Source: Psilocybe cubensis (taxonomy: Eukaryota). Taken from it: a stretch of DNA of 64,000 nt. The stretch covers positions 2,046,001-2,110,000 of the forward strand of contig CM039008.1 in the NCBI GenBank assembly GCA_017499595.2. The letters run 5' to 3'. A program made the translations under genes and the position numbers. Numbering within the stretch: position 1 is the first letter of the stretch; every line of letters begins with the position of its first letter. The notes beneath the pieces are model-generated. The model saw nothing but the letters and a program-made list of their open reading frames with translations. It made no database searches and was not told where the DNA came from. Positions 39,112 through 60,889 of this stretch are shown here, in pieces.

Positions 39112-42100
39112 TTAGGTCAGTTTAGGCCATCGCTCCTCGGGAACATCTACCCATCCCACATAACAAGGCTTGTCAGGTCGCTTGGTGTACCGACCTTTGC
39201 ATTTGACATTTCCACAATCACGACAACGGTTGTGGCAATGCTTGACCCGTTGGCGACCCGAACATTGTGTGGAGCCGCATTTTGCACAGGTACGAGGCCG
39301 TTTTCCCTTATCTAAAGCGTGCGATCGTTGAATCTGTTCACGCACACGTTTCTCAGACAGTGCTTCGCGATTTACACGATTGTGTACTGCAAGATTTGTC
39401 GCGGTAGTAAAGGTTTTTCGAGTTGTTGAGTGGGGCAGCAAAAGGTCGGAATTTGCACTTTGCAACGGTGTCTGTTGGTCATCGTGTACAGGTGTGTCTT
39501 TGTTGTTACCATGCACCTCTGAACGATTTGTATTAAAGGTTCCAACAGAAACGGACGTTGGAAGAAGTCCGTCATCGACACTCAGTGGTTTCAGAGTTTT
39601 CTCTGGTACACGGGGTGCCGTTACTGAGCGAGATGGGTTGCTAAGGATTGCTGCCAATGGTTTCCGAATGTCATATGTTGTAAAAAGAGACTCTTTAACA
39701 TTGAGGTTTGTTTTCCAATGTGCATAGTACGATTTTAATTGTTCAATTAACTGCAGTAAATGAATATTAGGATACTAGTCATGTTTAAGCTATTTTGTGC
39801 TTACCTTGTATGATATCTCTGAATTGATATCAGCGTAGTGATTCCAGACCTTCACGGCCTTTTTCCAGATTGGGCCGGATGTCAGAGAGTTGTAGTCGGG
39901 ATTGGCTTGCATAAGATCTCGGAAAAGCTGCTTTTCAATGTCGTTATGAATCGGAAGAATGGGCTTTCGTGTGTGTTGCATTTGAGCTAGAAAAGCATGA
40001 CGTTGCTTTTTGTCAATGCTAGGAATAAATTCAGACATCCCAGTTGCAATGCGAATGCTGGTTGGAATCGGAAGAATGCCTAACGTTTCGGTGGTAGGAA
40101 TGTATAGGTTTCCGTTAACCCATCCAGTAATTTCCACGGGATTTATTAGAACATCGTGAAGAAATGACAATCGCTCCTGAATGCTGTTGGTTAACCAGAT
40201 TGAGAAATGGCTGCGATACTTTTGTCCAGTGCTATTGAATGTTCCAACCTAACAAAACAGTTTAATATGATAGAGTAAGTAACAGTAGATATGGTCTTTC
40301 TTACCACAAGGTTGTGGTGCAGAGTGAAATCAGCAAGGCATGAGTAAACATGTTGCACTGATGCACCCGACGATGGAAGATGTGATCTAAGATGAGTATG
40401 TACTCCACCCTCTGTCATGTTTGTTCCACGAAAACATCGATAGATAGTGAGACTTGGTGCTGCACTATCAATCCCTATTGCCGCATAGAGAGGAATTCCG
40501 GGTGGATCAGATATAAAACCGCGTCGTGTCAAATCAAGAATATGGCCCGAGGTCTTCCAATCATTAAAGTTAAACAAAGGAGCACCTGTTGTAGCATCTT
40601 TGAGGGGGCCAAAAGTTTCAAAAACCTTCTTTAGCAATCCATGCAGTATGTCAGCTGGTGGAATGATTCGTTTACATCGTTTCCATAACCAGCGTGGACG
40701 AAGCTTTTGGATTTGCTCAAAAGTCAATGGTGGTGTTTGCATTGCGCCCCATGCACTAATTTTGGCACGGTCTTCACCGTCAGGAATAAATATTGCATCC
40801 CGAAGCTGTCGGGCAAACTCTGCACGTAAACCATGTGTTGAGGAGATATGAAACATGTTGAAAACATGGAAAACGTCTTTGAGGACCCGGCTCCGAATTG
40901 TACTGTCCCAGGTATTTGGATACTGGTCCAGTACTTGTTGGCCTAACGATGCACTTTCTGGGTCAATATTGCGAGGATGGTCTGTGGTTATAGGAGGTGC
41001 ACTAGTAGGCCGATGATTTTCAACAACAAGATTTCCGATTGAAGGAATTGAATCATCATCAAAAGTTGCATCAAGTGAGAGGTCGTTATCATCCAACTCT
41101 GCCAAGCTGGCAGTCAATAGATCCTGATTGGATGACTGATCTAGAGACATAGGGCTTGTTTGAGCTCTAGAAGACGAGTCCGACTGACTTGAATGATGTG
41201 TCCAAAATGTTGGCGAAAAGGTCTTTAAATGACTTCGTAAACAGACAAGAGTAAATGGTGGTGTCCCAAATGATGCAAGTGAACAGTTCCGATGACTGCT
41301 GATTAGTGCACCAGGGACAAATACTTCTTCAATGTCGACAGCAGTTCTTGTAGTAGTAATATTGATGCCATCGAGTTGCCTATCATCTTTGTGGGATGAA
41401 ATTTTTCCTCGAGCAATCACAGATGCCTTGTCGGTGTTGAATAAGAGAACAGGAATGCCTGCATTAAATTGAGAAGGAAGAACTTGCGGTGTTTCAAGAG
41501 TCGAAAGTTTGTTGTAAATGCATATACAAGCATATGCATCACAGGCTGCATAGGCGAGTTGATCGCGAGTAAGGATTTCATTTTCCCAAGCACTGCTAAT
41601 GCGCTCGGGAACGTTTTTGTTTAATCGTTTTCCCAAAACCAATGCACATAGATCAGCCAAACTGCATCGTGCGGAAGATATTACCATTTTGTCTTTTGCA
41701 TATTTGGCAAGGTCAAGAGCGCCAACAAAAGGTTTGGGTGACTGGGAAGCAGTTTGAAGATGCTTTAAATCGGCTTCAACAAGCCGTCCAGCTTTCACAA
41801 TATTTGGATTTTCCAATAAAATCCTAAGCTGACTTGGAAGTGTACCGCCTGCTAACATATCACCAATCTAATCAGAATTTTATTAGTTTACATTTAATCA
41901 TTGGTTTAAGTAGCTTATACATTACCTGAAGAATGTATATGGATGATTTATATGCTATTTGAATAATAGCTGTTTGTCCTCGATGCAGAATATGGCCATT
42001 AGATGATACTTCAACATTCCACTCGGAATCAAACCCTATCACGATTTTTTTGTCAGGATGACTTGGATCAAGATCATCAAGAATAGAGGCCATGGCAGCG

Positions 42101-44196
42101 TCTATGGCAGACGCTGTGCTTTTTACAAAAATAGCAATAGGCGGTGTCGGTACGGCAAGTGGTTCAAGATCTGGATACTTTTCAACTGGTACCACAGACT
42201 CTCGAAGAGACGGCCAGGCATCTTCAAGGAATGCCTTGTCACTGGCAACGTTATCTGTAAATGCAAGCTTGGGTTCGGAATGACCATACATCTTGAGTGA
42301 GTGAAGCATTTGCTTGAGTGCGAGCTGGTATTGAGAATGTGACTTTGTTGCAACAAGGCTACATGACCGGATCTCGCCCCTTTCATTGGTGACCGTAAGC
42401 AATCCCGTAAATATTTCTTCGCCATTGACCTTGGCAATATGCTTTGTGATCTGATTACAAAAATAAAGTTAGTAAAGAGTTATAGTAGTGATAATAGACA
42501 ACTACCACCTTGTGGCTATGATCGAGTGCACAAATTTCTGCACTAAGCATAGACATATGCTGGTTGAAATCATGGATATGCTCCATAATGAATCGGTCGT
42601 ACATGTTCCGGATCCATTGTGCGCTTGGTGTAAATCCATGCCTGCCATGAGGACTGATATCATCAAAACGTGGAAATGACATATACTTTTCTTCCCGCCA
42701 TTTGTCCAGTTTACGGCCAGCTAATTGGTTCAAATACTGAAGATGAAGCTCATCATACTTCAGCAAATGATGCACTCGAATTGTGTCCGATATTTGCTTT
42801 GCACCCAAACCGTTCTGGAACGACGACCTTACATACTGAAAAAGCCGTTTGGATATCGCACTACGATGACTAAGAATGGCGGGGAATTCAGCAGCCAAAT
42901 CTTGTGGAAGTGCCGAGAGAATGCGGCTATCCCAGCTATTAAAGGTCACAGTGTGCTTTCCAGACTTTGGATGAGTGCAGACACTGCAACGATAGCGATA
43001 TCCAATAAGATAGAATTCGGAATCAATATCAATGCATCGGCGAGGATATGATATATTTGCGTGACGTTGTAGTGTTGACTTGCAAATTGGACAGGGAATG
43101 CGTTTGAATAATGCTTGAGGGTCCCACAAATAAAAGCGGATATCCCACAGCTCATGGGGAGACGGTTTGTTGCGTTGAAGAATGAAATATATTGCTGGTC
43201 TAGGAAACCAAAATGAACAGTTTTTGGAATACAAGGGGGGAAGGCCATGCTTGTCTCGTTTTTCGGGCGCAGATTCCAAAACTTTGGCTTCGAAAGCCTC
43301 GAGAAGCCAAACAGGACGCGCATGACGGATGCGCCTACCTGTATTTTCTTGGTACTCACTGTCCTCAACATTCTCATCAACTGGATCCAGCTCATCACCC
43401 TTTTCATCCTGATTCTCCTCAAACCCAACATCTACACCAATTCCCTCGCCCGACATTCCAGTTTCTTCATCTTCGTCCTGGTCTTCATCGGCTAGTTCAA
43501 CCGGTCTCTGGGGATCTTCATCCGGAATAATTTCAATTGTTGACAACGATGTGGGTTCGGAGACATTTGGTAGCACAGGATTTTGAGCGAAAAGAGGGTT
43601 GGGGAGTGTTTGGCGAGTTGATGGGTCCACCGATACGAGAGGTGATCCACCGGACAAATTTGGCATTGAATTTCCTCGATGAAGAGGAAAAGGAAGTCCC
43701 GATGGCGGGCGTGAAGGCTGAAAAGTGCCTGGAATGGTCTATGACAATGGTAAACCATGTTAGTTGTAAACAAGTAGATAAAATTAATAAGACTCACCAC
43801 ACGGCCGAATTCTATTGAAATCTGAGGCTTACTTTTCCGTGGCCGCCCAACAGCTTTCTTTACAACAGGTGTTTGTTGTGCTTTTGTGCCAGAACCTTTC
43901 GGCCTGCCTACGGGGCGGCGATGAGCAGAAGAATCTGTGTCTTCTCCCACTGCTCTGGATTTACTCTTGCTTCCCAGCGGTCGCCCACGCTTTCGAGGAC
44001 GTGAAATCAAGTCCACGGGATATGGGGTAGCTGATCCGGACTCGTGGAAATGCGCAGGTGTCGTTACATTGAATAACGTATGAACTAAACAACCAAAATA
44101 AGCCGCCGAGACTTCAACATCAACAAGGGTTACACATACCTTCTTTTTCCCTCGGTTGACTGGGCATGGGAACGTCAAATGTACGTTCGGAGACAT
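39112..44196 (-). mobile_element. Putative DDE transposase gene (Mutator/ISL3-like signature) with AT-hooks, Cys-rich domains and an inserted DEDDy 3'-5' exonuclease; about 6 exons, roughly 1,600 aa; start codon uncertain
   Basis: Three GRP AT-hooks; CPIC...YRYRCSVC; ALDHSHK; AFTDNV; exonuclease motifs GFDSEW, EADLKHL and YAACDAY; VLKDVFH; RGTNMTEGGVH; C-terminal CAKC..C..C..CRDC..C. Splice sites are canonical and I saw no internal stops. Confidence 0.75.
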
Positions 44197-46808
44197 GCGA
44201 CAATCTAAGAGACCTCAAGTCAGCATACTTTGTACAATGTGAGTGATGCAATTTGTGGCTCACAATGGGCCGCCTAGTCTCGTTGATTGCTGTGGATACG
44301 AAGATTCCAAATCCATTGTTGTTGGATGCCAATCCATGATAATTCACAGTACGTGAGGGGAGATGAGGGACAGCAAAAGGTAAACAGCGGTAAGAATACG
44401 GCGCAAGCAAGGTACAGAGGAGTGCTGAGACGGCCGCGCGACTCGAGTAGACGCAGACGCGACGTGAATGAGACGGGATGAGATATTTCCCAGTCATGTG
44501 AATAATTACATAATATTCTCAGCATCAGTATCCAGCATCAGCCACAGGCATGGATAGCGAGCCTACTGTTAGGCTCGCTATCCATGCCTGTGGCTGATGC
44601 TGGATACTGATGCTGAGAATATTATGTAATTATTCACATGACTGGGAAATATCTCATCCCGTCTCATTCACGTCGCGTCTGCGTCTACTCGAGTCGCGCG
44701 GCCGTCTCAGCACTCCTCTGTACCTTGCTTGCGCCGTATTCTTACCGCTGTTTACCTTTTGCTGTCCCTCATCTCCCCTCACGTACTGTGAATTATCATG
44801 GATTGGCATCCAACAACAATGGATTTGGAATCTTCGTATCCACAGCAATCAACGAGACTAGGCGGCCCATTGTGAGCCACAAATTGCATCACTCACATTG
44901 TACAAAGTATGCTGACTTGAGGTCTCTTAGATTGTCGCATGTCTCCGAACGTACATTTGACGTTCCCATGCCCAGTCAACCGAGGGAAAAAGAAGGTATG
45001 TGTAACCCTTGTTGATGTTGAAGTCTCGGCGGCTTATTTTGGTTGTTTAGTTCATACGTTATTCAATGTAACGACACCTGCGCATTTCCACGAGTCCGGA
45101 TCAGCTACCCCATATCCCGTGGACTTGATTTCACGTCCTCGAAAGCGTGGGCGACCGCTGGGAAGCAAGAGTAAATCCAGAGCAGTGGGAGAAGACACAG
45201 ATTCTTCTGCTCATCGCCGCCCCGTAGGCAGGCCGAAAGGTTCTGGCACAAAAGCACAACAAACACCTGTTGTAAAGAAAGCTGTTGGGCGGCCACGGAA
45301 AAGTAAGCCTCAGATTTCAATAGAATTCGGCCGTGTGGTGAGTCTTATTAATTTTATCTACTTGTTTACAACTAACATGGTTTACCATTGTCATAGACCA
45401 TTCCAGGCACTTTTCAGCCTTCACGCCCGCCATCGGGACTTCCTTTTCCTCTTCATCGAGGAAATTCAATGCCAAATTTGTCCGGTGGATCACCTCTCGT
45501 ATCGGTGGACCCATCAACTCGCCAAACACTCCCCAACCCTCTTTTCGCTCAAAATCCTGTGCTACCAAATGTCTCCGAACCCACATCGTTGTCAACAATT
45601 GAAATTATTCCGGATGAAGATCCCCAGAGACCGGTTGAACTAGCCGATGAAGACCAGGACGAAGATGAAGAAACTGGAATGTCGGGCGAGGGAATTGGTG
45701 TAGATGTTGGGTTTGAGGAGAATCAGGATGAAAAGGGTGATGAGCTGGATCCAGTTGATGAGAATGTTGAGGACAGTGAGTACCAAGAAAATACAGGTAG
45801 GCGCATCCGTCATGCGCGTCCTGTTTGGCTTCTCGAGGCTTTCGAAGCCAAAGTTTTGGAATCTGCGCCCGAAAAACGAGACAAGCATGGCCTTCCCCCC
45901 TTGTATTCCAAAAACTGTTCATTTTGGTTTCCTAGACCAGCAATATATTTCATTCTTCAACGCAACAAACCGTCTCCCCATGAGCTGTGGGATATCCGCT
46001 TTTATTTGTGGGACCCTCAAGCATTATTCAAACGCATTCCCTGTCCAATTTGCAAGTCAACACTACAACGTCACGCAAATATATCATATCCTCGCCGATG
46101 CATTGATATTGATTCCGAATTCTATCTTATTGGATATCGCTATCGTTGCAGTGTCTGCACTCATCCAAAGTCTGGAAAGCACACTGTGACCTTTAATAGC
46201 TGGGATAGCCGCATTCTCTCGGCACTTCCACAAGATTTGGCTGCTGAATTCCCCGCCATTCTTAGTCATCGTAGTGCGATATCCAAACGGCTTTTTCAGT
46301 ATGTAAGGTCGTCGTTCCAGAACGGTTTGGGTGCAAAGCAAATATCGAACACAATTCGAGTGCATCATTTGCTGAAGTATGATGAGCTTCATCTTCAGTA
46401 TTTGAACCAATTAGCTGGCCGTAAACTGGACAAATGGCGGGAAGAAAAGTATATGTCATTTCCACGTTTTGATGATATCAGTCCTCATGGCAGGCATGGA
46501 TTTACACCAAGCGCACAATGGATCCGGAACATGTACGACCGATTCATTATGGAGCATATCCATGATTTCAACCAGCATATGTCTATGCTTAGTGCAGAAA
46601 TTTGTGCACTCGATCATAGCCACAAGGTGGTAGTTGTCTATTATCACTACTATAACTCTTTACTAACTTTATTTTTGTAATCAGATCACAAAGCATATTG
46701 CCAAGGTCAATGGCGAAGAAATATTTACGGGATTGCTTACGGTCACCAATGAAAGGGGCGAGATCCGGTCATGTAGCCTTGTTGCAACAAAGTCACATTC
46801 TCAATACC
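42327..46808. repeat. Near-perfect palindrome: arms 42327-44565 and 44570-46808, spacer CTGT
   Basis: Centre GGATAGCGAGCCTA-CTGT-TAGGCTCGCTATCC. Mirrored ORF coordinates sum to 89135. The only difference I saw is 42787/46348 (Asp vs Asn). Confidence 0.97.
44939..46808 (+). mobile_element. Mirror copy of the 5' part of the transposase gene, cut off by the gap
   Basis: ORFs 44939-45643 and 45469-46680 mirror ORFs 43492-44196 and 42455-43666. Confidence 0.8.
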
Positions 46809-46908
46809 NNNNNNNNNNNNNNNNNNNNNNNNNNNNNNNNNNNNNNNNNNNNNNNNNNNNNNNNNNNNNNNNNNNNNNNNNNNNNNNNNNNNNNNNNNNN
46901 NNNNNNNN
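46809..46908. other. Assembly gap (100 N)
   Basis: Run of Ns. Confidence 1.
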
Positions 46909-47183: not shown

Positions 47184-49905
47184 CTACTGATTTTGACTAG
47201 GTCCGCGATTATGCATAGCTCGCGTTGTATTCATGACACGCCAGTTCAATTCTCTTTCTTTCTTTGTTTCGGGAACAGTACAAAGAAACTGCGGATCGAG
47301 TTCCAATTGCTCGCCAGTTAAGGAATCAGGCGAGCCGACGGTCCTGGCCACAACGGATAGAATAATGTTGATTTTCTTGGTTAGCTGATCTAGTCGGTGA
47401 TGAATGCGACGAACGTATTTGCCGCTGTGATCTCCTTTTATGACGACGAGAAGGTTGTTGTCGTGAATTGGATGAGGGTATTTAGGGGTGACCCAACGGG
47501 GTTCTAATGAAATCCATGTGTGATATTTTTTATGTCGGAGAACAACCTCGTTGCCATGAAGCTCGATAGACACTGCAATTAGCTGCTTAGAAAAATCTCC
47601 GCCGTCAACTACAGCATTCAGTTTAACTCCCACGAGTTTTGGGTTCAAGAGGACATGTGGGGGTGGTGCTGGAGGCATCCACAATGGATCAGACGCCACG
47701 GAATCAGATAACGGAGTTCTCGAAGAGGGGTCCCAAGCTGGACTAGGTGGAGAAGACAAATTATTTGGTGCTGGTGTCGGAAGGGGCGTTGCACTACCAG
47801 ACGGCCTCTCCATCAGATAAGGGTGATGGGCGGATGTATCATGACCTTGCTCGGGTTGCGGCGTAGACAAAGTTTGCGTTGGGGTAGGTCGAATATGACC
47901 CTCACCGGGATCAAGGAACAGGACGAGCTCAAGAGAAGATCTACGTTGAAAATAATGAGTGTTGCATGACCTGTGTGAGATGGAATGCGCTTACGCAAAT
48001 TCAACGACGTCGTCGTAACGGACTGATATTCTGTGAAATGGGGCATTCGGGTCGTATCGCGTCAACTGCATGTGCAACGTTATAGTATTGTCATCGAGAT
48101 TTTCCTTGACATCCTGAATTACTCCGTATTCGCCTTTTCGAGGATGGTGCTGCTTAGATATCTTCACTTTTACTCCACACCATGGATGTGGAGGCGTCTT
48201 GGGAAGGGGACCAGATTCTGGCTGGCGCACATAAGGGATTATGGCAGTTTGTTCTGGCTCGTGCTTGTGGTGCAGCACGACGGGCTCCTTTGCAATGTCT
48301 ACAAAGTTGACAAAAACCTCTGTTGACTGTCAAGAGATAAGTAAGCCAATAGAGTTGCAAAAGTAGAACGAATAACAAAATGGAGACCTCACTTCAATGA
48401 CCTCGTCACCATCCCTAAAATAAGTAGGTATTTCACCTTCAAACTTCTTGCTGACAAAATGAACTCGATCATCTTTGAGAGCAACTACCCAGCCTGTCTT
48501 GCCAGTATGATGTCCACCCCGTACACAAACATGTTGTCCGATTTTAACATCCTTCCTGATTTCTTGCCACGGCACACGTTTTGTTGGGTTGTCGGCTAGA
48601 GGTACACCGTGTGTCCCTATTTCGAGGACTTCCGCATAGTAGGTATCCATAACCTTCAAGATAGCTGGGGCAAAAAACGACGTAGAGGTTGAAGGGGTGC
48701 TGCAAATGAGAACCGCGTCGCCTTCTTTCAAAGTCCATTCGCGCGGGCGTGGCATATGCGAGCGATTAACTGCTGGGTGTTGGCTCATTCTAAACATGGT
48801 GTAGAAGTCATGGGGTATGTCCTTGACGTTAACTGTGAATGAACGGTGGTCCAAATTTTGGGCCAGAAGCCCTTGTTCGAAGTCCATATCGCGAAAGCAG
48901 TAGCAATCAGGCCCACGGCTCTGCACGTCGGTTGGGAAAAGCTGTCGAAAGTGATCCGGATCGAAGAGCTTAGCAGCCGGCTTAACAGTCGATGATTTTC
49001 GCTTGAGGGGGTTCTGTGGGGTCGTATGTAGCCGAGGAATGAGGAGAATACGGGCATGTTGAAAACTTTTTTGTGAAACCACGCCAACGTCTCCCTTGTA
49101 CAAGCCTTTCTTGATGACTACCCATGCACCGACGTCCACGGGACCATCCCTCATCCCAAGCACTTGACTATACTCTGAAGAGTCGATGAGCTGTCGTTTG
49201 ATACCCAAGCCGTTACGCAGTACACCTGGTGTCCGTAGAAGAAGGTCGACGAGGGCTTGGTTCATTTTACATTCGATATAGATACTGCCCTGTGTTGATC
49301 CTCGAGTGAATGCGGAACGAACCTGATGTACTTCCGAGACTGTGCTGAGCAGAGACATCACAGCCTGTTCTTCAATACCAACCTGCGAAGATCCATTCAG
49401 TTTAGAACGCCCAGTGTCAATAACGGTAGGGTACGCACTCTACATTCAACCCGCCACAGTGGATAATCATCCGCCCTAGGTATGTACAACAAACCATTGT
49501 CATGGAGTGTATCGTCTGGATCTTCAGGAATGGCGAATCCCCCATCTCCCGCGGCATTGATTCTGGACTCGATGCGCGAAATCAAGCGCTCTAATGCTCC
49601 CTCGGTATGCCTATGAACTGATAACTGGGTCGGTAGAACGGAATGCCCAACATCCGGGGGTGTATCATCGTCGATGAATCCATCTCAATGGCAAGGGTTA
49701 TATTAGTAGGGTAAATGTGTTTGAAGTATAATATTCACCTTCTCTATCTATTTCTCCGGATCCCGTCTGTTCGTCTTCCTCAGAAATTTCGTCGTCAACT
49801 TGAGCTTCGGTGTCCAGGAACTGGCGGATTCTGGGATCTATCTGTAATAATGTTACTAACCTAAACGGATTAAGATATCAAGGAATCATGACATACCTTC
49901 TTCAT
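47184..49905 (-). CDS. Divergent Spt5 (NusG-family) homolog: acidic N-terminus, NGN domain, several KOW motifs, vestigial CTR
   Basis: FLDTEAQVDDEISEEDE, GFIDDD, YIPRADDYPLWRVECRVGIEEQAVMSLL, SAFTRGSTQGSIYIE. KOW-like segments GAWVVIKKGLYKGDVGVV, IGQHVCVRGGHHTGKTGWVV and VKISKQHHPRKGEYGVIQDV. CTR-like SGSATP and SPAWDPSSRTP. Confidence 0.85.
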
Positions 49906-50505
49906 TGCGATTTTCGCGAAACACTCTGGTCTGCGCTACACTGCTTGTGCTGTGTGGTCATCAGCTGGTCGTTATTAAGACACGATCGCATCATATTTTC
50001 TTATTGTGCTCGTAGGTGGAGACTCGTTCAACTCATGTATTTTTGTTTTTTTTGTTATTCACGTACATCACCTCTAGCTAACTTCATACCAACATTGTTT
50101 AAAAACGTACCTATGGTTCTGCTACTCAAGGCTGTCGTTAACGTTGAGGAAAAGAGAAAGCGTGAGAATATGTTGAGTAGCTCAATATGTACCCCTCGGA
50201 ATTTCAAGCCGCTCAAGCCGATTATCGCGTGCGGTATTCTCCTCGGCAACGCGGCTTGAAAATTCCGGGGGTTCATCATGGCGTGGTCGGCATTTTCTCA
50301 CGGTTTCGTTCTCTTTCCACCCATAACACACCATGTCGCTCAGTGCGTAAGTAGTAGTAAATATATTTACAGTAGATCGTAAATATGTGTACAAATTAGT
50401 TTACAAACGAACGAAAGTCGGAACGATGGAGAACCGCCAAAATAAGACAGGAAACAGAAAAAACAGGAAACAGAGCAGAAGACGCTCAGATAGAGCAGAA
50501 GTCGC

Positions 50506-51071
50506 TCAGGGCATTGTGAAGGAGAGGTCCTTTGGGATGCGGAACCTTGGCTGTTGGCGAACAGTTTCCACAAACCTAGGTACTGTTAGCGTTCTTCTAT
50601 ACTCTCAGTATCGCCAGCTCACCTCTTCACTGCGTGGTCAGCCAACTTCCCATCCCGTATGGTGAAATTGACGAGGTCCAGACTTAGACCTTTGCGGAAC
50701 ACGACGACATCCCCTCTCCATCGTGCATTTCCCCAGCGTCTAAGAGATTTGTTGCGAGGCAGAAACTTGTGATTCTTAACGAAGATATGAAAGCGTGTAG
50801 TCCGCCCTTTGTTAACGATCGACACCACGCCGTCATGTATGTGTGGCTGCAGCGATTTCCCGCCCATCAATAAGTCCAGTCTAGGACTCCTCCCGCTCGC
50901 GTTTGCAAGAGTGTGTATTTTCTTCGTTACAGCACGGTTTGCATCGACCGCATAATATCTGGCATTAAGGGTCATATGGAGATCCTTGGTCGAAGTGAGT
51001 CGTTATTCATATAAACTTCGATTTCATCTCACCCTTGTAGTCGACCGGAAGGTCATCAACGATGATACCAT
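50506..51071 (-). CDS. Hypothetical small basic protein (3 exons)
   Basis: Clean spliced model MVSSLMTFRSTTR|DLHMTLNARYY...FHIFVKNHKFLPRNKSL...WRGDVVVFRKG...LADHAVKR|FVETVRQQPRFRIPKDLSFTMP. Confidence 0.65.
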
Positions 51072-51275
51072 GTCGGCGAAAAAGTATGGAGGTGGATGTG
51101 GCGGTAATTAGGGAGGAAAGTATGAGGCGCGAATACGGTTTGGCTGCTATCTTTTAGGTGAGTCCCTCTTTGTTTCCTTATTCCCGGTATTCACAAAGAG
51201 TTTTTGAATAAAGAGCCCCCATCTGAGTGTACAAAAGGTGACCTCGGGAAGGCAGGCATCCTCAGTATCATACCC

Positions 51276-54200
51276 ATGTCGTCCACCCGACGGGAAACGT
51301 TGCCCCTCAAGGAGAGGATCGTGGCCTTACTTACTCCTTCGGCAACTGGATCTTCCACTGATCAAGAACCCTCCTCAATGGACACATCACCTGATTACCC
51401 GACGGAACGTCTAGAACAAGTAGAACAAGGAGGAGCTGGAGCTACTTTGTCCAACGCTACGCCTTCTAATGTAGCGGTTTCTTTTCCAATTCCTCCACCC
51501 GGACCTGCCGCAGATGAACACGGTGCACGTACAGCCTCCATTGCTCCCTCTGTTTCTCAGCCCACCAATGGCGCTAGTTTGACCAATCAGGTTCCTGTAA
51601 ATGCGGTTATTCTCTTACCACCCCGGCTTGCTGCAGATGACCAGGGAGCCCAAGGATCTTCAGTCCCAAATCGTGTTGCTCCCTCTGTTTCTCAGCCCAG
51701 CAATGGCGCTAGTTTGACCAATCAAGCTCCTGTAAATGCGGTTACTCTCTTACCACCCCGGCTTGCTGCAGATGACCAGGGAGCCCAAGGATCTTCCGTC
51801 CCAGATCGTGTTGCTCCCTCTGTTTCTCAGCCCACCAACGGCGCTAGTTCGATCGATCAGGCGCCTTTCCGGTTTGCTACAGATGTTCGGGGTGCCCAAG
51901 GATCCTCCATTGCGAATAGTGTCTCTCGGCCATCCGCTGGACATATCCCACGGATTGGGTCTTCCGACGTGCTTTTTCCTGGACATTTCCGACAGAACGA
52001 GTCTTCCGCCAACACTAATCCTCCTCCGAACCCTGAAACGTCTATGGACATTGATCCTACACTACCTACGTCGTCAAATCCCAGTAGCACCTCTACATTT
52101 CCACGGTTTTTTATACCCGTTTTGTCTGGAAATTTGTTCAATTTCACTAGAAGTGATCCGAACCAGTCTAACCAGTCTAAGGCGAAGAAACGACGAGCTG
52201 CACCGGAAGACCATACCACCAAAGTCCAAGTCATCGAACAGAAAGACGTCGACATCGCAGAGCTGAGCAAGCAACAGGCACGTTACCCAAAATCTACTTT
52301 TCTTGTCATTTATGTATTCATTGCTTTTTTAGATCAAGCAGAGGGAAGAGGTGCTCAAGAAAATCATTGATGATGAACGAGCGGAAGTATGTTAATTTAT
52401 TTCCTATGTTGCAAGATTTGCGTATTTACCACCATCGTACAGCTAACTAAGTCGAAGAATGCCATCAAAAATGCTGAAAAGAAAGCAGAAAGGAGCAAAA
52501 AGGAGGTAGAGGCTGTACGTTCGCAGTATACCAAGCTGTCGAAGGCAATGCGGACGGAGAAGGAGAGCTCCAAAGGGCTTGAAGAAACTGTTAAAACTCA
52601 ACAAGGCGACCTCTCGTCAGCGTTGATCAAACTTCGGCGTGCAGAGTCCTTATCTAAAGCATACGACCGCCAGCGTCTTGAAGCTCAGGAGCGTCACGAG
52701 AAAACGAATGCCGATCTCGAAGCTGCGGTTGCTTCGCGAGGTCAACAACTCTTCGCACAAATCTCAGATTTAGAAAACGACATCGCTCGTCTGCAGCAAG
52801 AGAAATCCAGCGAAGTCAGTACGTTACAGCGGCAGCTCCAGCAAGCAAATTCGAGGATTGAAGATTTAAGTGCCTCACAAAATACAGCGGCCCTTGCACA
52901 GGAACAAATTAGCTCTCTTCAGCAACAGCTCCGGGACGCGAATTCGACAATTGAAAATCTCAACGCATCGCAACGTGCAGCAGCAACGTTACAGCAGCAG
53001 CTCCAGCAAGCAAATTCGAGGATTGAAGATTTAAGTGCCTCACAAAATACGGCGGCCCTTGCACAGGAACAAATTAACTCTCTTCAGCAACAGCTCCGGG
53101 ACGCGAATTCGACAATTGAAAATCTCAACGCATCGCAACGTGCAGCAGCAACGTTACAGCAGCAGCTCCAGGCAGCAAATTCGAGGATTGAAAGTTTAAG
53201 TGCCTCACAAAATACGGCGGCCCTTGCACAGGAACAAATTAACTCTCTTCAGCAACAGCTCCGGGACGCGAATTCGACAATTGCAAATCTCAACACATCG
53301 CAAAGTGCAGCACACGCACAGGACCAAATCAATGCTCTCCAACAACAGCTAGAGCGCGCAAACACGACACGTGTGGAAGATCAACAAACTATCACGGGCC
53401 TCAATGAACGGTTGCGTGTTGCGTCAAACGAGATAACCCGCCTTACAGCACAATTACAAAACCAGCGAGAGGAGTCGCAGAAACAGTATCATGCGCTCGA
53501 ACGCGATCTCAAGTCCCAAATGGATCTCCATCAACAAAAATCAGCGGACGCCGAGAACGCTCTGAAAGCAGAGCAAACTAACCGAATGGTTTGTCTGTCA
53601 ATCTTTAATCATGGCATTGTTGCTGATACAGAGCACAGGCCGAGATGAATCAAATGAAGGCCACTTACGAGGATACGGTGGTAGGATTCTAGTTTAGCCT
53701 ATGCCTCAACAAATCCGACTGATAAGGTATCATTATTAGTCCAGCCTGCGTCTCCAAGTTTCCAATCTGGCACAACAATGTCAGGCAAATCAAGGTCGCT
53801 TGAACGAGCTGGAATCAAGCAATACCGAATTCGGTAACACGACAAGTGCGTTGGAGGACATATTAAAGAACGAACGAATTAAGAATGAAGTAAATCTGTT
53901 CCCCTCCTTGTCAATCTTCGATTCTGATCACACCTCCAAGGTTTTGCAGGCTCGCATTAATTCAGTTATGAAGAACAGAACTCACAATACTGAGGATGAT
54001 TATGAACCAACGGAAATTAGGAGGTTGGATGCCCGGCGGAGGCTGGTATGTTAAACAATCCATTCGTACGTAGTACCTAATAATTTACCTCGATGTCTTC
54101 TAGATTGGGATCAACAAGCGCAATGCCGGGTTTTCTATACATTCACGAGTACGCAATAATGTATGTGGTGATCTTGTTGATCCTAACGAGGTATCTTAGA

Positions 54201-56172
54201 TTGCCCAGCGCGGACAATCAGCTGTTCCACCGTCAAATCCTCCTCAAAATGAAGCCTCGAGGGATGAAGATGACGAAATGGTAGATAGTTCTCCGCTCCG
54301 GAATTCGCCTCGAGCTCCCAATTCGTCACCCCCGCTGGACTCAGACGACGAACATATGGAAGATGGGACAACACACCAAAGACCTGTTCCAAGATCAGCA
54401 TCACCTCGGCGATATATAATTCCGGGTTTTTTTCCTACAAGATATACCACAATTCCACCATCTCAAAGACGCAGGGATTCTAACCGCGCGACCCCTATCC
54501 CTCCTACAGGTCAGTCAGCAACAGAGCGATACTTTGCCGCTGCTATGCAACGGCTAGGGCGCCTTCCCGCTTCAAACTCTACCATAGCGCCTACCTCTGC
54601 TACCTCTGCGGTGAATGATCCTTACCGTGCTGCCTATCAAGCTCGTCATGCGACCCGCCCTACTGTCAGTCCTGTCGTTGATCGTACAGTTCCAGCGATG
54701 CCTACCACGCCAACCACGCCAAGACATTCGGCCTCCGAAGTGCGAACGTCTAACACATCTGTCCCTCCCAACTCCTCAACTGCAAATCCTCAACTCGCTG
54801 CCTATCAAGTGCGTCATGCAAATCGCTCTGGTGCCAGTACAAATCCTCAACTCGCTGCCTATCAAGCTCGGCACGCAGAACGCTCTGGTGCCAGTGCCCA
54901 GCGCGCAAAATCTCCTGCCACTGCTCAGCCGGCTCCTCCGATGGCCAACACGCCAAGGCATCCGACTTCGACCGTTACGGCTCCCAATATGCCTTCAGAC
55001 GATGATCAGCACCCTTCGCCACGACCCAATACCGATAACATGCTGATTGAATGTATACAAACTATGACTGCCAGTGTCAACGGCTTGCGGGATGATTTGG
55101 CAAACGGAAGAGGACCCAGAGTACGTCAGACGCCTACGAAAGTCAAGTCTCCCTTCAAAGAGAAGGCTCCAGCTAGGCCTCGTACAATTGACCGCACACA
55201 GTTGACGGTATAGTTTTTACTACCTATATATCAATGCTTTACTTAAGCCCAGAATTTTTAGCAAGCAGTGCGCCTACATCTGCGCAAATGTCTCGATCTC
55301 CCTGCAGATCATCGTGACAGCCAAATCTACTCCGATCTTGATAATATTCACATCGCCGACGAGGTTGAAGTGGATCGTTTAGAGCGCCGACGACGAGATC
55401 CTCCGACGATGACACCTTTCCAGTTGTATTTTGACAGAGTCAACACACAATGGAACCGTCACATGGCAAACCTCTTTGCAGATTCTTTAGTGCGACAATA
55501 TCCAGAATATCGGGGGCAAGAGGAAGAAATTGAACAATGTTTCCTTCGGCGTCTCACTACTCTAAGGGATTACATGTCCAACGCCATGCCACGGGGGGAT
55601 GAAACTGAACAGGATGCGGGAAATAGACTGTTGATGGAGAAAGAGGGACGCGACCGGTTTAAGCGGGTTCGTCGTCGTCAGACTAAAGTAAGCTATCAAG
55701 TTAGTCCGAATTCCTTGCTCTAACGGCCTTTACTTTGCAGCTGTATGAGACCCGTGTTGATAGTGCTCAACAGGCGAACATGCCAAATCATGCGCGGACC
55801 ATTGTGACGCTAGGAGATGATGGGATGAGTTCCGACGAGAGCGATTCTGAAGAGCGCGGAATCCGAAGCGTTAGGATATTATATTGGCGAAATCCACGGC
55901 TACTGAACACCGTGACGGATGCCGATAATGCTTTGCCAGCCACGACTGCATATGGTGGTAGGCGCCCCGGAGGTCAACCTGATGTCCGTCAGCGGTTAAG
56001 GCAAGGGCAAAATTACAGTACGAGGCCTGCCCCAACTAGACTCCCCATAAACTACTACAATCCGGTCTGGTTGAATACTTTATCCGACCTTGAACTACGA
56101 TTGCTAGACCCCCAGGCCGCTCAACCATTTCCAGGGGAGGACGACGAGGTGAATCCTGCAATCTATACCTAA
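51276..56172 (+). CDS. Large multi-exon coiled-coil protein with internal tandem repeats and a compact C-terminal domain
   Basis: Chain of same-strand ORFs (51204, 52389, 53800, 54278, 55268, 55735) separated by short GT-AG introns. C-terminus LGDDGMSSDESD...YWRNPRL...LPINYYNPVWLNTL. May be more than one gene. Confidence 0.65.
51541..51860 (+). repeat. Coding tandem repeat, 135-bp (45-aa) unit, about 2.4 copies
   Basis: TTGCTCCCTCTGTTTCTCAGCCCA at 51541, 51676 and 51811. Confidence 0.95.
52821..53312 (+). repeat. Coding tandem repeat, 165-bp (55-aa) unit, 3 copies
   Basis: ACGTTACAGC at 52821, 52986 and 53151; unit TLQQQLQQANSRIEDLSASQNTAALAQEQINSLQQQLRDANSTIENLNASQRAAA. Confidence 0.97.
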
Positions 56173-56777: not shown

Positions 56778-57365
56778 CTAGTAATATTCCAATTCACGAG
56801 GACCCAATCGCGAGGTCTCGGCGGAAGGACCGTACGGGTCGACGTCTGTAACGAGATATATATTTTGGCCCGATCGATGGAGGAAGCGATATCGACAAGG
56901 GTTTTGAAGTCCATGGATTCTCTGCAAGAACTTTAAGATTCAAAGGTAGCACGCCGTAAAAAAACTGCATACCTCCATGATGTTTATGTCGTTTTGCGAC
57001 CAAATATGGTCGATTGCTTCCAGAATATTGGCAGTTGTCGGCGTATATGAATTAGCGAAAGAACCGTCGAGGAGGCTGCGGACTGTATTGACAGATACTG
57101 GCATGGAAACGATATAACGACGTTCGCTTCGCAGTCCGGAGCGCAATAATGGGGCAGGGCGTGAGCTCAAATTATTGAGGTTTAAAAGGTGTGGAGAAGG
57201 GTTGTAGACAACCGTGTAATAATCGTAAAAAGTGAACACAGCGAGCAACGTCATGGGTGAAAAAAGCGCGAGAAAGAACCATAAACCATTGTGTGTTAAA
57301 ATGCCTATGCCGACCAACATGGTGCCTACGACAAGCGTTGTGACAGCGAAGCATAAAATGCCCAT
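56778..57365 (-). CDS. Hypothetical membrane protein (two N-terminal hydrophobic segments)
   Basis: MGILCFAVTTLVVGTMLVGIGIL...LWFFLALFSPMTLLAVFTFY within ORF 56940-57449; a plausible intron near 56973 extends the frame to a TAG at 56778. Confidence 0.45.
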
Positions 57366-57916
57366 GATGGTGGATGGGTGGAACGAGGTGGGAGTTGGCT
57401 TCACATTAGATCTTAGCCTATTTAAACACTTTCGAGGTTTAAAACACAAAGGACATACGAAACAAAGAGATAGACGTTCGGGACTTTAAACTATTCATTA
57501 AGATCTTCACGAGACAGTCCGTGACCCTAATGCGGGCCTGACGCGCCTTCTACGCGACCTGACATTCAAATAAAGTAAGTTGCCTGCAATACAGAATTAT
57601 TTTCAGTTGAAGGTGCAACTTATGGGGAGACTTTTTCACATAAACCCTTATGGTTGCATTCGTTCATAGAAAGTCGCGGTAAAATTAAATAGAACCAGTG
57701 ACTCTGACATTGTTACAAACTCATGAATTATTAGAACAGGAAGCATGGCGCAGGAACTTAATACCCTTGCTCGAGATTATCTTTCCTCCGATCGTTGACG
57801 TTGATGTTGTTGCATATATTGGAGATGGGGTGTCAATTCCGAATAGGTAGATATTTTCTCAGGGGGTATCGGTGATCGCTGTGGGGAAATTCTTGATAAG
57901 TACAAGGCAATGCGAA

Positions 57917-58471
57917 CTATACGGAAGCTGAACGTACTGCTTGTATCCCGACTATATCTTCGGGAGGGCCTTCTTGATACATGATCTGTTGAAGGTAGGG
58001 ACAAAGTTGGCAAATATACGGGCACGGATGAGGCTCGAAGTTCGATCGATTAGTGGAGGAAGCCCCGGGGTCAATTGTGGGATGTTGAACTCGGACCAAA
58101 ATACTCAGATAATCACTTGGAAGAGTGACGTCGAGTAGCTCAGGTGGCCGAGTGAGTGAGACCTGATTGTATGGCAAAGGACTTCGGTTTGCATTATTTG
58201 CGAGTGATACGTGTGATCGATAAGTAAAGCGTTGGTTATACGGGGGGTTTCGATTTGCATTATTCATGGACTTCGTGCAACTGGGGCATTTAGGGTGCCC
58301 ATCGCCGTCTGGAAAAGGTAGATGGGAATAGGTTGGTACAGATTGAGCGGGTGATGTGATGACATGAAATTGCCGCAATTGCTGCCGCTGTGTGTCCGGG
58401 AAGTGATAGTGGTTTCTGGCGCAATATCCGTCTCCCGATTCCATAGTTTTGTAGATGGTAGCAGACGACAA
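57917..58471 (-). CDS. Possible hypothetical protein
   Basis: 184-aa ORF with CPSC and a duplicated NNANRxP(L)PYNQ motif; no family recognised. Confidence 0.3.
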   Translation of the reverse strand: MSSATIYKTMESGDGYCARNHYHFPDTQRQQLRQFHVITSPAQSVPTYSHLPFPDGDGHPKCPSCTKSMNNANRNPPYNQRFTYRSHVSLANNANRSPLPYNQVSLTRPPELLDVTLPSDYLSILVRVQHPTIDPGASSTNRSNFEPHPCPYICQLCPYLQQIMYQEGPPEDIVGIQAVRSASV

Positions 58472-59100
58472 AAGTCGTGGGGAAGGGAGAATCGCAACTT
58501 TTATCCTGTGACTTTCGAGCGACCCTGGATAGTTTAGTTACCTTGTAGTTACCTAATCTTATCTCCACAACAGTTGTACTCACAGTGTAACGTTATGGCA
58601 GATACAATAAGTTATTGAAGTTCGGCCGGCGTGTTCAAACGTGTCTAGATAAGTTAGAATCAAGCTTGGGTTTCGATGTGTTCAAGACTTACTTGTCAAA
58701 ATGGGCTCGGAAGCGGATCATAGCTCATGTCTAATTTGTCTTCTGACAGAAAACTTCCATTAAACTTTCGGAGACGATGTGCATCCTCACAGTGAGCGAC
58801 TATGACTTTAAAATTGAGACATAGGGATTTCCACATTAAGACATTTGATAATGGTATGGGAAGAAAGGTTGTACAGGAAACGAGCGACGGGGTAAAGAAA
58901 AGCAATGTCAACGAGTTTCAAACCCGAATAGTATGCAATAACAGATGCAGGAGGAAAGGAACGTGGATTAGAGTCGGACATGAATAGTGCATGTGGAAAT
59001 GAACGTGAAAAAAAGAGTAGAGAGGAGAGACCATTACAAATAAAGGAAGGACAGGTATAACAAGCCAGGGCACAATGGTATAGAGTTGGGGGGAGGGAAT

Positions 59101-60022: not shown

Positions 60023-60889
60023 GGTCGTACGAGTAAGTTGAAAGGAGGCAGAAAAGAGCGTCTAAGAAAGGTTGGTGGTGAATTGATAATATGAGAAGGG
60101 TAGGATGGCGAGGGGCTTGAAATATACGCACAGTCGATAGCACACAGGCATTATCAAGTCGCTGTGGGCGTGTTTTACGCGTCAAACGGCTTTTGCGGAG
60201 GACTGCTTGATTGCTTTCACACTGATCTATTAGGTCTATTGATTCAGAAAGGGTACAATTACAAATTATACAGAAAGAACTCTTTCATCGAGGAAGACGA
60301 TGTTTCCCCATGACGAGGAGATGAACAAAGAAGGTCGGAAAGGTGGTCCGGTCGCGCGCCAGCATTGATATACCGTGTTGATTTCCATGCCGCTTCGGCG
60401 AGTTGCCGAAGCGGCATGGAAATCTGTGCACTATAATATTCTCGTTCAAGCATTTTCGCACGGTTCGCTCTTCCTCCACCACGACCCGACAGTCTGTAAA
60501 AAATACGTAGTTTCAGCGACTCCTGTAGTTAGATTACTTCTTCTAGTAGAGTGAGAGAAACTGAAGTCTGCTAAAGCATCCCACCCAAACATAACTGAAA
60601 AATAACAAAGCTCGGATTGTATAGTGATAGTGAAAGGGATCCCGGGTGAGAGAATAAACGAAACAAACACGCTGTCGTCTCGTTGATGACCCGCTTGTGT
60701 CGAAAGGCGGATCCAGCGCTAGGCATATCTCCGGTGAGCTGAAAGGCAACACGACGTACTCAATCTTAAAGACAAGACACGGCAGGCTTTGAATAAAAGT
60801 ACCTTCACCCCACAAATCAAACATTTTGCCACATTTGCCCGTACACCACAGTGCTATCCTATCTGTCTACTTATACCTACTTATACATC

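Follow-up and report, generated by a model that had tools for sequence, protein, structure and literature searches.

Background

Of all transcription factors, only Spt5/NusG is conserved across every domain of life, and eukaryotic Spt5 is normally encoded by one single essential gene. The known eukaryotic paralogs, plant KTF1 and ciliate Spt5m, serve their hosts in non-coding or silencing transcription. KTF1 is the partner of Pol V in RNA-directed DNA methylation; it acts in host silencing and has a long tail of GW/WG repeats, the AGO-hook. In bacteria, specialised NusG paralogs such as RfaH and the plasmid-borne ActX/TraB-type proteins consist of two domains (NGN and one KOW) and are recruited via the ops DNA element; they replace the housekeeping factor and keep long foreign transcription units from being terminated or silenced. 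Paramecium Spt5m is reported to be a meiosis-specific Spt5 paralog acting in non-coding transcription (PMC5416832). Moreover, TET/JBP dioxygenase genes ride several unrelated fungal DNA-transposon lineages in Agaricomycetes (Plavaka, EnSpm and hAT), and this cargo is proposed to help the elements escape silencing (Kojima 2025, PMC12730594).

Here, we analysed a window of 64,000 nt from Psilocybe cubensis (contig CM039008.1 of GCA_017499595.2, positions 2,046,001-2,110,000; all positions below count from the first letter of this stretch), which contains a divergent, intact Spt5 homolog. The large divergent family that includes this gene is labelled Spt5L. Like canonical Spt5, the large subunit of DSIF (Spt4-Spt5), the window protein has an acidic N-terminal FLDxEAxVD motif, an NGN, KOW1-linker and KOW2-3 domains, a CTR-type motif and a tandem resembling KOW6-7. 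However, canonical Spt5 has about 1000-1200 aa and the window protein only 811 aa; the latter is predicted to lack one of the KOW domains that lie between KOW3 and the CTR, and a single CTR-like motif takes the place of an array. Furthermore, unlike canonical Spt5, Spt5L is multi-copy and fast-evolving, and relatives of the window gene adjoin transposases.

Gene model and domain architecture

The features of the Spt5-like gene and of the conserved ORF upstream of it are as follows.

47184..49905, minus strand: Spt5-like gene, 6 exons, 811 aa (splice model with open frame; identity to GenBank P0001)
49905-49897, 49841-49739, 49683-49439, 49382-48393, 48326-47995 and 47940-47184, minus strand: exons of the Spt5-like gene, stop included
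49739..49905, minus strand: acidic N-terminus encoded by exons 1-2, carrying the Spt5_N-type motif RQFLDTEAQVDDE (translation)
49158..49459, minus strand: NGN, residues 113-194, split by a 56-nt intron at 49383-49438 (Pfam Spt5-NGN)
48750..49130, minus strand: KOW1 with linker insertion, residues 204-330 (precomputed PF23042 KOW1_SPT5; Foldseek 4ytk)
48294..48722, minus strand: KOW2-KOW3-like tandem, residues 340-460, spanning the intron 48327-48392
47995..48176, minus strand: one further KOW-like barrel, residues 500-559 (beta strands 502-558, pLDDT about 90)
47673..47876, minus strand: disordered CTR-like region, residues 582-649 (pLDDT <50)
47265..47642, minus strand: C-terminal tandem beta domain, KOW6-KOW7-like, residues about 660-785 (exon 6 model pLDDT >95)
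50623..51071, minus strand: conserved upstream ORF, exons 51071-51033 and 50984-50623

All five introns of the Spt5-like gene are 54-66 nt long with GT..AG borders, and the 811 codons of the spliced model run without a frame break. Residues 1-691 equal the GenBank protein P0001, titled 'Transcription elongation factor SPT5, partial [Psilocybe cubensis]', letter for letter, and therefore an independent annotation has the same five introns. From the above, the gene is intact and short, as the preliminary description (about 800 aa) had it.

The upstream ORF shares 50% identity with residues 1-117 of P0002, a P. cyanescens model in which it is fused to the Spt5-like part, and it is thus common to the window locus and P0002. 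A 692-nt intron to 49930 would join it in frame to the Spt5-like gene (frame checked). No Pfam family was found for it, and it represents a small gene of its own or else extends the Spt5-like gene at the 5' end.

Residues 7-448 are colinear with Spt5 chains in PDB (phmmer; 8qsz_Y, E 8.7e-28), and the top Foldseek matches of the AlphaFold model (pLDDT 74) are all Spt5 chains (E 1e-22). In the N-terminus, the motif RQFLDTEAQVDDE aligns with RRNQFLDIEAEVDED of solved Spt5 (phmmer against PDB) and is conserved in the family; the Pfam Spt5_N model gives no match on P0001 at E<=1e-3. Spt5-NGN (PF03439) passes its cut-off on P0001 (28.3 bits; cut-off 22.4), and exon 4 alone scores lower (18.3 bits) because the first NGN strand is encoded in exon 3. 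Across this exon 3/4 junction lies LWRVECR|VGIEE, the segment previously read as LWRVEC.VG.E. The NGN region is modelled with a pLDDT of about 90, and its Foldseek matches include archaeal Spt4/5 and NusG chains. E156, the Glu of the IYIE strand in the NGN, is invariant in nine of nine close relatives and presumably has a role in Spt4 binding.

In the KOW part, the KOW1-Linker1 structure 4ytk and the KOW2-KOW3 structure 4ytl match the model with TMt of 0.84 and 0.80, respectively (Foldseek), and the generic Pfam KOW model passes its cut-off at residues 401-427 of P0001 (24.9 bits; cut-off 22.3). The further KOW-like barrel carries the family motif PW.G..V.I.K..H..KG, and no Pfam match specific to it (residues 500-559) was found. 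Canonical Spt5 has KOW4 and KOW5 at this place and the predicted fold has one barrel, so the window protein would have one KOW fewer.

The CTR-like region contains a single clear motif, SPAWDPSSRTP (47712-47744), which resembles the TPAWNSGS repeats of solved Spt5 (phmmer alignment to PDB) and whose PAWDP is invariant in nine of nine close relatives. The preliminary description had counted about two TP/AW motifs in a reduced CTR; the reduction stands, and the second motif, DPLWMPP, is degenerate. Two copies of the CTR-like motif occur in the P. cubensis paralog P0004. Among PDB structures, the C-terminal tandem is closest to KOW6-KOW7 of human DSIF (5ohq; E 1.3e-4, TMt 0.66). This folded last exon was absent from the earlier account and adds to its domain description. 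Generally, the Spt5 domain order is retained as that account held, from the acidic N-terminus through NGN, KOW1-linker, KOW2-3, one more KOW and the CTR-like motif to the KOW6-7-like tandem, judging by sequence and predicted fold.

Divergence from canonical SPT5

The window protein has the two features of the Spt5/NusG superfamily, an N-terminal NGN followed by at least one KOW. It is 23% identical to the canonical fungal Spt5 P0159, and P0001 matches 3 Pfam families against 12 for P0159, CTD included. In P0159, the NGN scores 90 bits and the CTD (PF12815) 61 bits, whereas P0001 gives no match to the CTD model of the CTR array at E<=1e-3. Among the SPT5-specific models, KOW4, KOWx and KOW7 have no match on P0001 and KOW5_SPT5 stays below its cut-off (21.6; cut-off 27). 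Only Spt5-NGN and generic KOW pass the Pfam cut-offs in the scan of P0001, to which the precomputed list adds KOW1_SPT5. The protein is thus strongly diverged, as had been noticed before.

That the window gene is nothing other than the canonical P. cubensis SPT5 is suggested by its database names ('Transcription elongation factor SPT5' in GenBank and 'Chromatin elongation factor SPT5' in UniRef) and by the retained domain order. Nevertheless, the low identity and the missing Pfam families argue against it, as do at least three mutually divergent paralogs (41-73%) in P. cubensis and the separation of the family from the canonical rows in the tree (see below). Moreover, in the ESM Atlas there is a further, separate cluster from Basidiomycota, about 1020 aa in length, of whose members more than 90% carry Spt5 Pfam families; this is a lead only. 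We therefore regard the canonical identity as highly improbable. A canonical P. cubensis SPT5 was not returned by the word-indexed protein searches, in which the profile search ran among the best 7999 word-sharing candidates.

The Spt5L family and its evolution

At E<=1e-3 the family comprises 622 representative clusters, of which 223 remain at <=1e-10 and 62 at <=1e-30. Among the members that carry names, only Psilocybe, Flammula, Pholiota, Cyclocybe and Lentinula were found, all of which are Agaricales. P. cubensis has at least three Spt5L paralogs, two of which (P0003 and P0004) are 73% alike. In the phylogeny, the 43 rows of the family group together in a single clade, apart from the 2 canonical rows (SH-aLRT 100), and the window copy is sister to P. 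cyanescens P0002 (SH-aLRT 100). The P. cyanescens protein is 54-57% identical to the window protein, and the motifs PRPxEW, PAWDPSSRTP and DNGLLVVIKGEHxGKxVRRI are kept in it and in relatives down to 25% identity.

With a 9-row alignment of close relatives as query, we found 44 metagenome loci that encode Spt5L relatives. The equivalent of exon 4 is a single ORF in most of them (28 of 44), is split within the contig in 8 and is cut by contig ends or has no match in another 8. For pairs of metagenome relatives with dS>0.2, dN/dS is 0.28-0.65, while it reaches 0.84-0.96 in three of four pairs with dS of 0.06-0.11, the fourth (L001/L003) being a repeat of L001/L002. Low dN/dS in old pairs with near-neutral values in young ones is a pattern that would be expected of transposon-borne genes.

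Transposon neighbourhood of the relatives

In order to describe the neighbourhood, we used the 10 distinct metagenome loci with at least 3 kb of flank. As a raw count, a Pfam match to a DNA transposase lies within about 4 kb in 6 of these 10 loci, and no transposase was found in the flanks of the other 4. The transposases belong to Plavaka (L001 and L027), Transposase_21 (L006, L029 and L042) and hAT dimerisation (L016). Thus at least three superfamilies are represented, in addition to which a Helitron and a copia element are present. General presence in transposon-rich DNA would explain much of this association.

Some loci have a tighter arrangement. In L029 and L032 (about 80% alike), the transposase, a palindrome and Spt5L are common as one block, and through the L029 palindrome a mirror copy of the first acidic exon lies on the side of the transposase. 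Near-perfect palindromes occur at a similar upstream place in L004, L006, L008, L029 and L033.

At the other end of the gene, the copies L001-L004 and L026, which are 93-99% alike and of which two come from one sample, share the end ...GCGGCAACACTA, after which their five flanks are unrelated. The same terminus is kept in L007 and in L006/L024, and the transposases of L001 and L006 are on its far side. With one sharp terminus followed by unrelated flanks, the gene in the subfamily ending at GCGGCAACACTA sits at the end of a repeated unit, and at the sequence level this subfamily appears to behave as part of mobile DNA. An inverted copy of this right terminus that could serve as left end is absent in L006 (1-12000) and in every locus, and the upstream break between L033/L007 and L004/L008 gave no interpretable left boundary.

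The terminus reads ...CAACACTA-3' and does not end in TG, ACA or TGATG. Its opposite strand starts with TAGTG, which we take to be a start that would fit the hAT-type YARNG rule. For CACTA/EnSpm-Plavaka elements, PMC12730594 gives termini of the form 5'-CA..TG-3' (EnSpm CAC..GTG, PlavakaA TGT..ACA and PlavakaB CATCA..TGATG). A terminus of this type was rejected because the end is not TG, and a Helitron terminus was rejected because the flanking base is not always T.

Local context of the window copy

Around the Spt5-like gene, the following features were recognized in the window.

46809..46908, no strand: assembly gap of 100 N, 276 nt downstream of the stop codon
42327..46808, no strand: perfect palindrome, arms 42327-44565 and 44570-46808 (2239 nt each, 100%), 4-nt spacer, directly adjoining the gap
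40191..43738, minus strand: transposase-like gene (DUF6729, weak MULE, 3'-5' exonuclease; Pfam)
56970..57206, minus strand: fragment of the N-terminal extension (residues 17-91) of paralog P0003 (tblastn 63%, E 8e-24)
50156..50307, no strand: weak palindrome, 57-nt arms, 72% complementary, about 330 nt upstream of the ATG

The transposase-like gene matches DUF6729 (E 1.6e-19) and DNA_pol_A_exo1 (E 1.8e-12), with MULE below the cut-off (E 0.0096), and its 5' part is mirrored at 45397-46680 on the plus strand. It is separated from the Spt5-like gene by the 100-N gap next to the palindrome, which is probably an assembly foldback; contigs of two other strains extend about 8.8 kb further left across the gap point. 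The weak palindrome upstream of the ATG may be due to chance. The P0003-like fragment sits within the ORF 56940-57485.

No terminal motif of the GCGGCAACACTA type was found near the 3' end of the window gene, and matches to it at 43070, 46058 and 52010 lie in unrelated places. The window ORFs outside the gene have no match at E<=1e-8 to the flank ORFs of the metagenome loci, and Pfam gave nothing on 50619-50975, 51162-52370, 54200-56172, 56940-57485, 57917-58537 and 59282-60061. Within the window, no transposase lies in a defined element together with the Spt5-like gene. The transposon-like context named in the preliminary description is borne out in part: it is seen in the relatives, with their six of ten loci and their sharp terminus, and is weaker in the window itself with its N gap and probable foldback.

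In two other strains, the word depth of the window copy equals that of its flanks. One strain departs from the window CDS at 4 nonsynonymous and 0 synonymous sites, with an SNP density equal to that of the flanks; these small numbers are compatible with relaxed constraint. Flank-level depth and the species-like pattern shared with P. cyanescens lead us to regard the window copy as most likely a resident, single-copy gene, vertically shared with P. cyanescens, rather than a freshly captured one. Of the "captured paralog" proposed earlier, the paralog is thus upheld and the fresh capture is not. Most likely, the copy is a relic or domesticated descendant of an accessory gene and not part of an active element.

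Discussion

The interpretation in the preliminary description, a captured paralog helping transcription of silenced or repeat chromatin or competing with host Spt5, is partly supported. On balance, we lean slightly towards a joint reading, in which the window gene is a resident copy of a diverged Spt5L paralog from a family linked to mobile DNA, and in which Spt5L acts as a CTR-less Pol II variant serving transposons. Spt5L appears to retain the polymerase-binding end of Spt5 (NGN and KOW1) and to have no phosphorylated CTR platform, and for this reason we propose that it would bind RNA polymerase II alongside host Spt5 or as a substitute for it. Such elongation complexes might be processive without recruiting CTR-dependent partners, which could favour the transcription of transposon genes or their release from co-transcriptional silencing. 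A parallel would be the transposon-borne TET/JBP genes, which are thought to counter methylation.

A more specific model, which we offer tentatively and by analogy as a possibility, is that mushroom DNA transposons carry their own CTR-less Spt5 for processive or silencing-proof transcription at the element, with resident copies domesticated and modulating host repeat transcription. Loading at the element might then occur partly through the mirrored promoter and first exon common with the transposase gene. The mixed transposase neighbours of Spt5L resemble the pattern described for TET/JBP in PMC12730594. However, TET/JBP is a different protein family, for which complete elements with termini and TSDs were reconstructed, in contrast to the one terminus in one Spt5L subfamily, and the terms Spt5, KOW, NGN and elongation do not occur in the text of that paper. 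Full-text searches on Spt5 with fungal transposons or paralogs, with the original Plavaka/KDZ description outside their scope, returned no paper on such a family. Plavaka and KDZ were reportedly named in a PNAS 2014 paper. With the bacterial NusG paralogs, Spt5L would share an Spt5/NusG factor encoded by or acting on mobile DNA; those proteins are two-domain and ops-recruited, whereas Spt5L has no known recruitment signal, and the comparison is an analogy only.

A different origin would be a lineage-specific host paralog family, for instance for non-coding or silencing transcription like plant SPT5L/KTF1 or ciliate Spt5m, which is located and duplicates in transposon-rich DNA without being cargo. 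The tree is consistent with this, since the rows group in a species-like manner (window copy with P. cyanescens, P. cubensis copies b and c, Flammula, Pholiota) with few paralogs per species, and so are the apparently single-copy state of the window gene, the purifying selection in older pairs and the mixed superfamilies of the transposases, which in L001 and L006 lie outside the terminus. The KTF1 chain 8hyj_W is also among the PDB sequence matches, with the N-terminal 240 residues of the window protein (E 9.6e-8), and plant SPT5L/KTF1 (RDM3) is likewise a lineage-specific Spt5 paralog tied to transposon biology. But the window protein is fungal, and its relatives adjoin transposases and are not known to belong to host silencing pathways; the AGO-hook (GW/WG platform) is absent from it, the one GW/WG in 811 residues lying inside a KOW strand. 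Five near-identical copies with one exact end and five unrelated flanks are a mobile-DNA signature, unlike ordinary host duplication. The near-neutral young copies, the disruption in 8 of 44 loci, and the transposase and Spt5L of L029/L032 with their common mirrored promoter and first exon also speak against a host family, and we consider it rather unlikely. Spt5m resembles Spt5L as a second, specialised Spt5 alongside the housekeeping one; it is set apart as a single developmental ciliate host paralog that is not known to have a transposase neighbourhood or a multi-copy family.

For the window gene itself, one may ask whether it is a decaying relic, non-functional, untranscribed, drifting and open by chance. 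The 4 nonsynonymous against 0 synonymous changes at flank-level SNP density and the fragments of related units in the flanks (56970-57206) would agree with such decay. Against this stand 811 codons open over five introns with canonical splice sites, architecture and motifs kept relative to the 54-57% identical P. cyanescens protein and to relatives down to 25%, and confident predicted folds for all domains, so that we judge mere decay improbable.

If the reading of Spt5L as a CTR-less Spt5 serving transposons is true, it would be the first case of eukaryotic mobile DNA bringing its own elongation factor, and a second anti-silencing cargo alongside the transposon-borne TET/JBP genes. The public name 'transcription elongation factor SPT5' for Spt5L genes misleads orthology-based work in Agaricales. 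In addition, the family would, under the same reading, offer naturally occurring Spt5 variants without a CTR, with which the role of the CTR could be dissected.

Gene structure and domains of the Spt5-like protein

The gene under study lies in a window of Psilocybe cubensis DNA and is a divergent, intact Spt5 paralog, for which the splice model on the minus strand gives six exons:

49905-49897, minus, exon 1
49841-49739, minus, exon 2
49683-49439, minus, exon 3
49382-48393, minus, exon 4
48326-47995, minus, exon 5
47940-47184, minus, exon 6

The five introns are all GT..AG and 54-66 nt long, and the frame is open throughout the 811 codons. Exon 4 matches the GenBank protein of this gene, P0001 ([quoted passage not shown]), at 100% identity. 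P0001 equals residues 1-691 of the model, so an independent annotation agrees on the splice sites. An in-frame 5' extension via 51071-51033 and 50984-50623, followed by a 692-nt intron to 49930, is possible from the reading frame. This small two-exon ORF (51071-50623, minus) has no Pfam family and shares 50% identity with the start of the P. cyanescens protein model P0002, where its counterpart, directly upstream of the Spt5-like gene, is fused to that gene.

P0001 exceeds the Pfam cut-offs for Spt5-NGN (28.3 bits; cut-off 22.4) and KOW (24.9 bits; cut-off 22.3), and residues 7-448, including the acidic FLDxEAxVD start, align colinearly with solved Spt5 chains (best 8qsz_Y, E 8.7e-28). The AlphaFold model, built from a 32-row family alignment (pLDDT 74), contains confident NGN, KOW1-linker and KOW2-3 and one further KOW barrel, followed by a disordered segment (582-649). 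Its top Foldseek matches are all Spt5 chains (E 1e-22), with KOW1-Linker1 matching 4ytk (TMt 0.84) and KOW2-KOW3 matching 4ytl (TMt 0.80). Together these results bear out the Spt5 domain order read from the sequence in the preliminary description. Beyond that description, a C-terminal tandem KOW is predicted to be kept: the last exon, modelled alone (pLDDT 81; folded part >95), forms a tandem beta domain for which the closest PDB structure is human DSIF KOW6-KOW7 (5ohq, E 1.3e-4). The disordered segment holds a single SPAWDPSSRTP motif, which resembles in alignment the TPAWNSGS repeats of a solved Spt5 chain; the P. cubensis paralog P0004 has two such copies.

The Spt5L family

The paralog belongs to a large family (Spt5L), whose named members belong without exception to Agaricales (Psilocybe cubensis, P. 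cyanescens, Flammula, Pholiota, Cyclocybe and Lentinula). P. cubensis has at least two other family proteins with this architecture: P0003 (997 aa; 41% identity to P0001) and P0004 (948 aa; 40%). These two share 73% identity. With exon 4 as query, an exhaustive HMMER scan recovered 622 representative (50% identity) clusters at E<=1e-3, of which 223 reach <=1e-10 and 62 reach <=1e-30. Many representatives are ~300-aa single-exon ORFs beginning at a conserved internal Met, which suggests unannotated assemblies. Family proteins are typically 680-810 aa, and DYPLWRV.C, RSAFT, YKGDVG, KRK, PRPxEW, PAWDPSSRTP and DNGLLVVIKGEHxGKxVRRI are kept from end to end.

A quick maximum-likelihood tree places the 43 family rows in a single clade (SH-aLRT 100), set against a thin outgroup of two canonical, non-basidiomycete sequences. 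P0002 is the sister of the window protein (100), the P0003/P0004 pair comes next (98), and all are nested in a Flammula/Pholiota/Psilocybe clade.

Transposases and a sharp terminus at metagenomic relatives

Scanning metagenome contigs gave 44 loci (L handles) encoding relatives, and every one that was checked is nearer to the Spt5L family than to the canonical factor. At ten distinct loci the flank on one side is 3 kb or longer, and 6 of these 10 carry a DNA-transposase Pfam match within ~4 kb of the Spt5L gene:

L001, L027: Plavaka
L006, L029, L042: Transposase_21
L016: hAT dimerisation domain

No transposase match was found in the long-flank loci L010, L011, L013 and L026, and L001 also contains a Helitron. 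Transposase neighbours recur beside Spt5L relatives. L029 and L032 (~80% alike) share a block that contains the transposase gene, a palindrome and Spt5L in this order and continues past Spt5L. At a distance of 0.5-0.8 kb upstream of the match, L004, L006, L008, L029 and L033 each have a near-perfect palindrome with arms of 100-310 nt. In L029, a ~620-nt palindrome (4201-4823) separates divergently transcribed Transposase_21 and Spt5-like genes and mirrors exon 1, which is acidic (F[LI]DIEAQVD plus an acidic run), onto the transposase side; with this exon present in both directions, the two genes would have a promoter and N-terminus in common.

Five copies (L001, L002, L003, L004 and L026; 93-99% alike, two from the same sample) stop being similar at one base, ...GAGCCGGAGCCGCGGCAACACTA, a few hundred bases past the stop codon, after which five unrelated sequences follow. 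The ...GCAACACTA end is also kept in L007 (~70% alike) and the L006/L024 locus, and a transposase lies beyond the terminus in L001 and L006. A single sharp terminus with unrelated flanks is, at the level of sequence, mobile-repeat behaviour, and we regard it as the most telling result. The opposite end of the repeated unit was searched for in the metagenome loci and not found.

Assignment of this terminus to CACTA/Plavaka was rejected, as the end misfits the termini listed in PMC12730594. Separately, a copia-type LTR retrotransposon (gag, integrase, RVT_2) occupies L024 585-5910, immediately 5' of the Spt5-like gene or within its 5' part, and is missing from L006 (site 9924/9920), the contigs being otherwise 94-97% identical. 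An ORF family without Pfam family or annotation (L027 3822-5081, plus; L013 936-1967, plus; 25% identity, phmmer E ~1e-10) adjoins the Spt5-like gene in two subfamilies, on its downstream side in one and on its upstream side in the other.

The window copy and its surroundings

Around the window gene, the following features were found:

43738-40191, minus, transposase-like gene: DUF6729 (E 1.6e-19), weak MULE match, 3'-5' exonuclease (E 1.8e-12)
42327-44565 and 44570-46808, perfect palindrome, 2239-nt arms, 4-nt spacer
46809-46908, 100-N gap between the Spt5-like and transposase-like genes

The transposase-like gene, the only one nearby, is possibly a Mutator-like element or a domesticated derivative. 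The palindrome ends exactly at the gap and is most likely a foldback assembly artefact copying the 5' part of the neighbouring gene. An assembly artefact is the simplest account of a 100% identical foldback next to a scaffold gap, so the adjacency of the two genes is weak. The transposon-like context first proposed is partly borne out: it is seen in relatives, with their transposase neighbours and mobile-type terminus, and is weak in the window itself. The window copy, being sister to P0002, looks like a resident, vertically inherited descendant rather than a freshly "captured" gene.

Contigs of two other strains extend ~8.8 kb past the gap and are DNA, because they cover the Spt5-like gene unspliced; word depth over the gene equals flank depth in both. 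One strain (run X2) differs from the window CDS by four nonsynonymous and no synonymous changes (47878, 48466, 48719, 49808; each C>T or G>A, read on the plus strand), and another strain by one synonymous change. These differences would be compatible with weak constraint, in numbers too small for a claim.

Upstream, the stretch 57206-56970 (minus) shares 63% identity with the N-terminal extension of P0003 and forms the C-terminal part of ORF 56940-57485 (minus), whose start looks transmembrane. This ORF seems to be a displaced 5' fragment from another Spt5L unit and lies 7 kb upstream of the gene. Both flank pieces (51071-50623; 57206-56970) recur beside paralogs. The window flank ORFs have no match among flank ORFs of the metagenome loci, and the terminal motif of the metagenome subfamily is absent near the window gene.

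The region 51276-53648 (plus) holds one or more repeat-rich genes. A 135-nt tandem unit occurs three times at 51541-51866, within Pro/Ser/Gln-rich coding sequence, and a 165-nt unit three times at 52821-53315, within a long coiled coil. The short contigs from other strains are interrupted in this region, as repeats would lead one to expect, and the ORF at 21326-22069 contains a comparable coiled coil. Ordinary-looking host genes include a SET-domain ORF (6015-7331, plus) and an acyltransferase ORF (34714-35436, minus).

Selection and alternative readings

It is highly improbable that the window gene is the canonical SPT5 factor. No canonical P. cubensis SPT5 appears among the matches listed in the protein searches; against this reading, the window protein is 23% identical to the canonical fungal Spt5 from the same search (P0159, 1181 aa), and P0001 has three Pfam families versus 12 for P0159 (including Spt5_N, KOW1, KOW2, KOWx, KOW4, KOW5, KOW7 and CTD; NGN 90 bits) in the same scan. 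That the window gene is a decaying relic is unlikely.

Among the 44 metagenome loci, the exon-4 equivalent is an uninterrupted single ORF in 28 and split or shortened within the contig in 8 (stops and extra introns together); in the other 8 it runs off the contig or gave no match.

Nei-Gojobori dN/dS of this exon is 0.28-0.65 in all pairs with dS >0.2 and 0.84-0.96 in pairs with dS 0.06-0.11; two further pairs are too alike to be informative. Old Spt5L lineages are under moderate purifying selection, and in another subfamily similarity stops exactly at the stop codon, which again points to selection on the coding part. Judged by these comparisons, constrained old lineages with near-neutral young copies are the pattern of transposon-borne genes. 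A host silencing-type paralog family, merely resident in repeat-rich DNA, has perhaps one chance in a few; the resident look of the window copy speaks for it, and the sharp terminus of its relatives against it.

Possible role of Spt5L

Plavaka and KDZ were reportedly introduced in a 2014 PNAS paper. In the literature covered, no paper was found on a transposon-linked or Agaricomycete Spt5 paralog family. Spt5, KOW and NGN do not occur in the text of PMC12730594 or PMC12062965. Specialised bacterial NusG paralogs and transposon-borne TET/JBP (PMC12730594) may serve as analogies. The protein would bind Pol II, and perhaps Spt4, through the conserved NGN/KOW1. Its elongation complexes, having no C-terminal repeat (CTR) array, would fail to recruit CTR-dependent partners, an outcome that may favour transcription or anti-silencing of mobile DNA.
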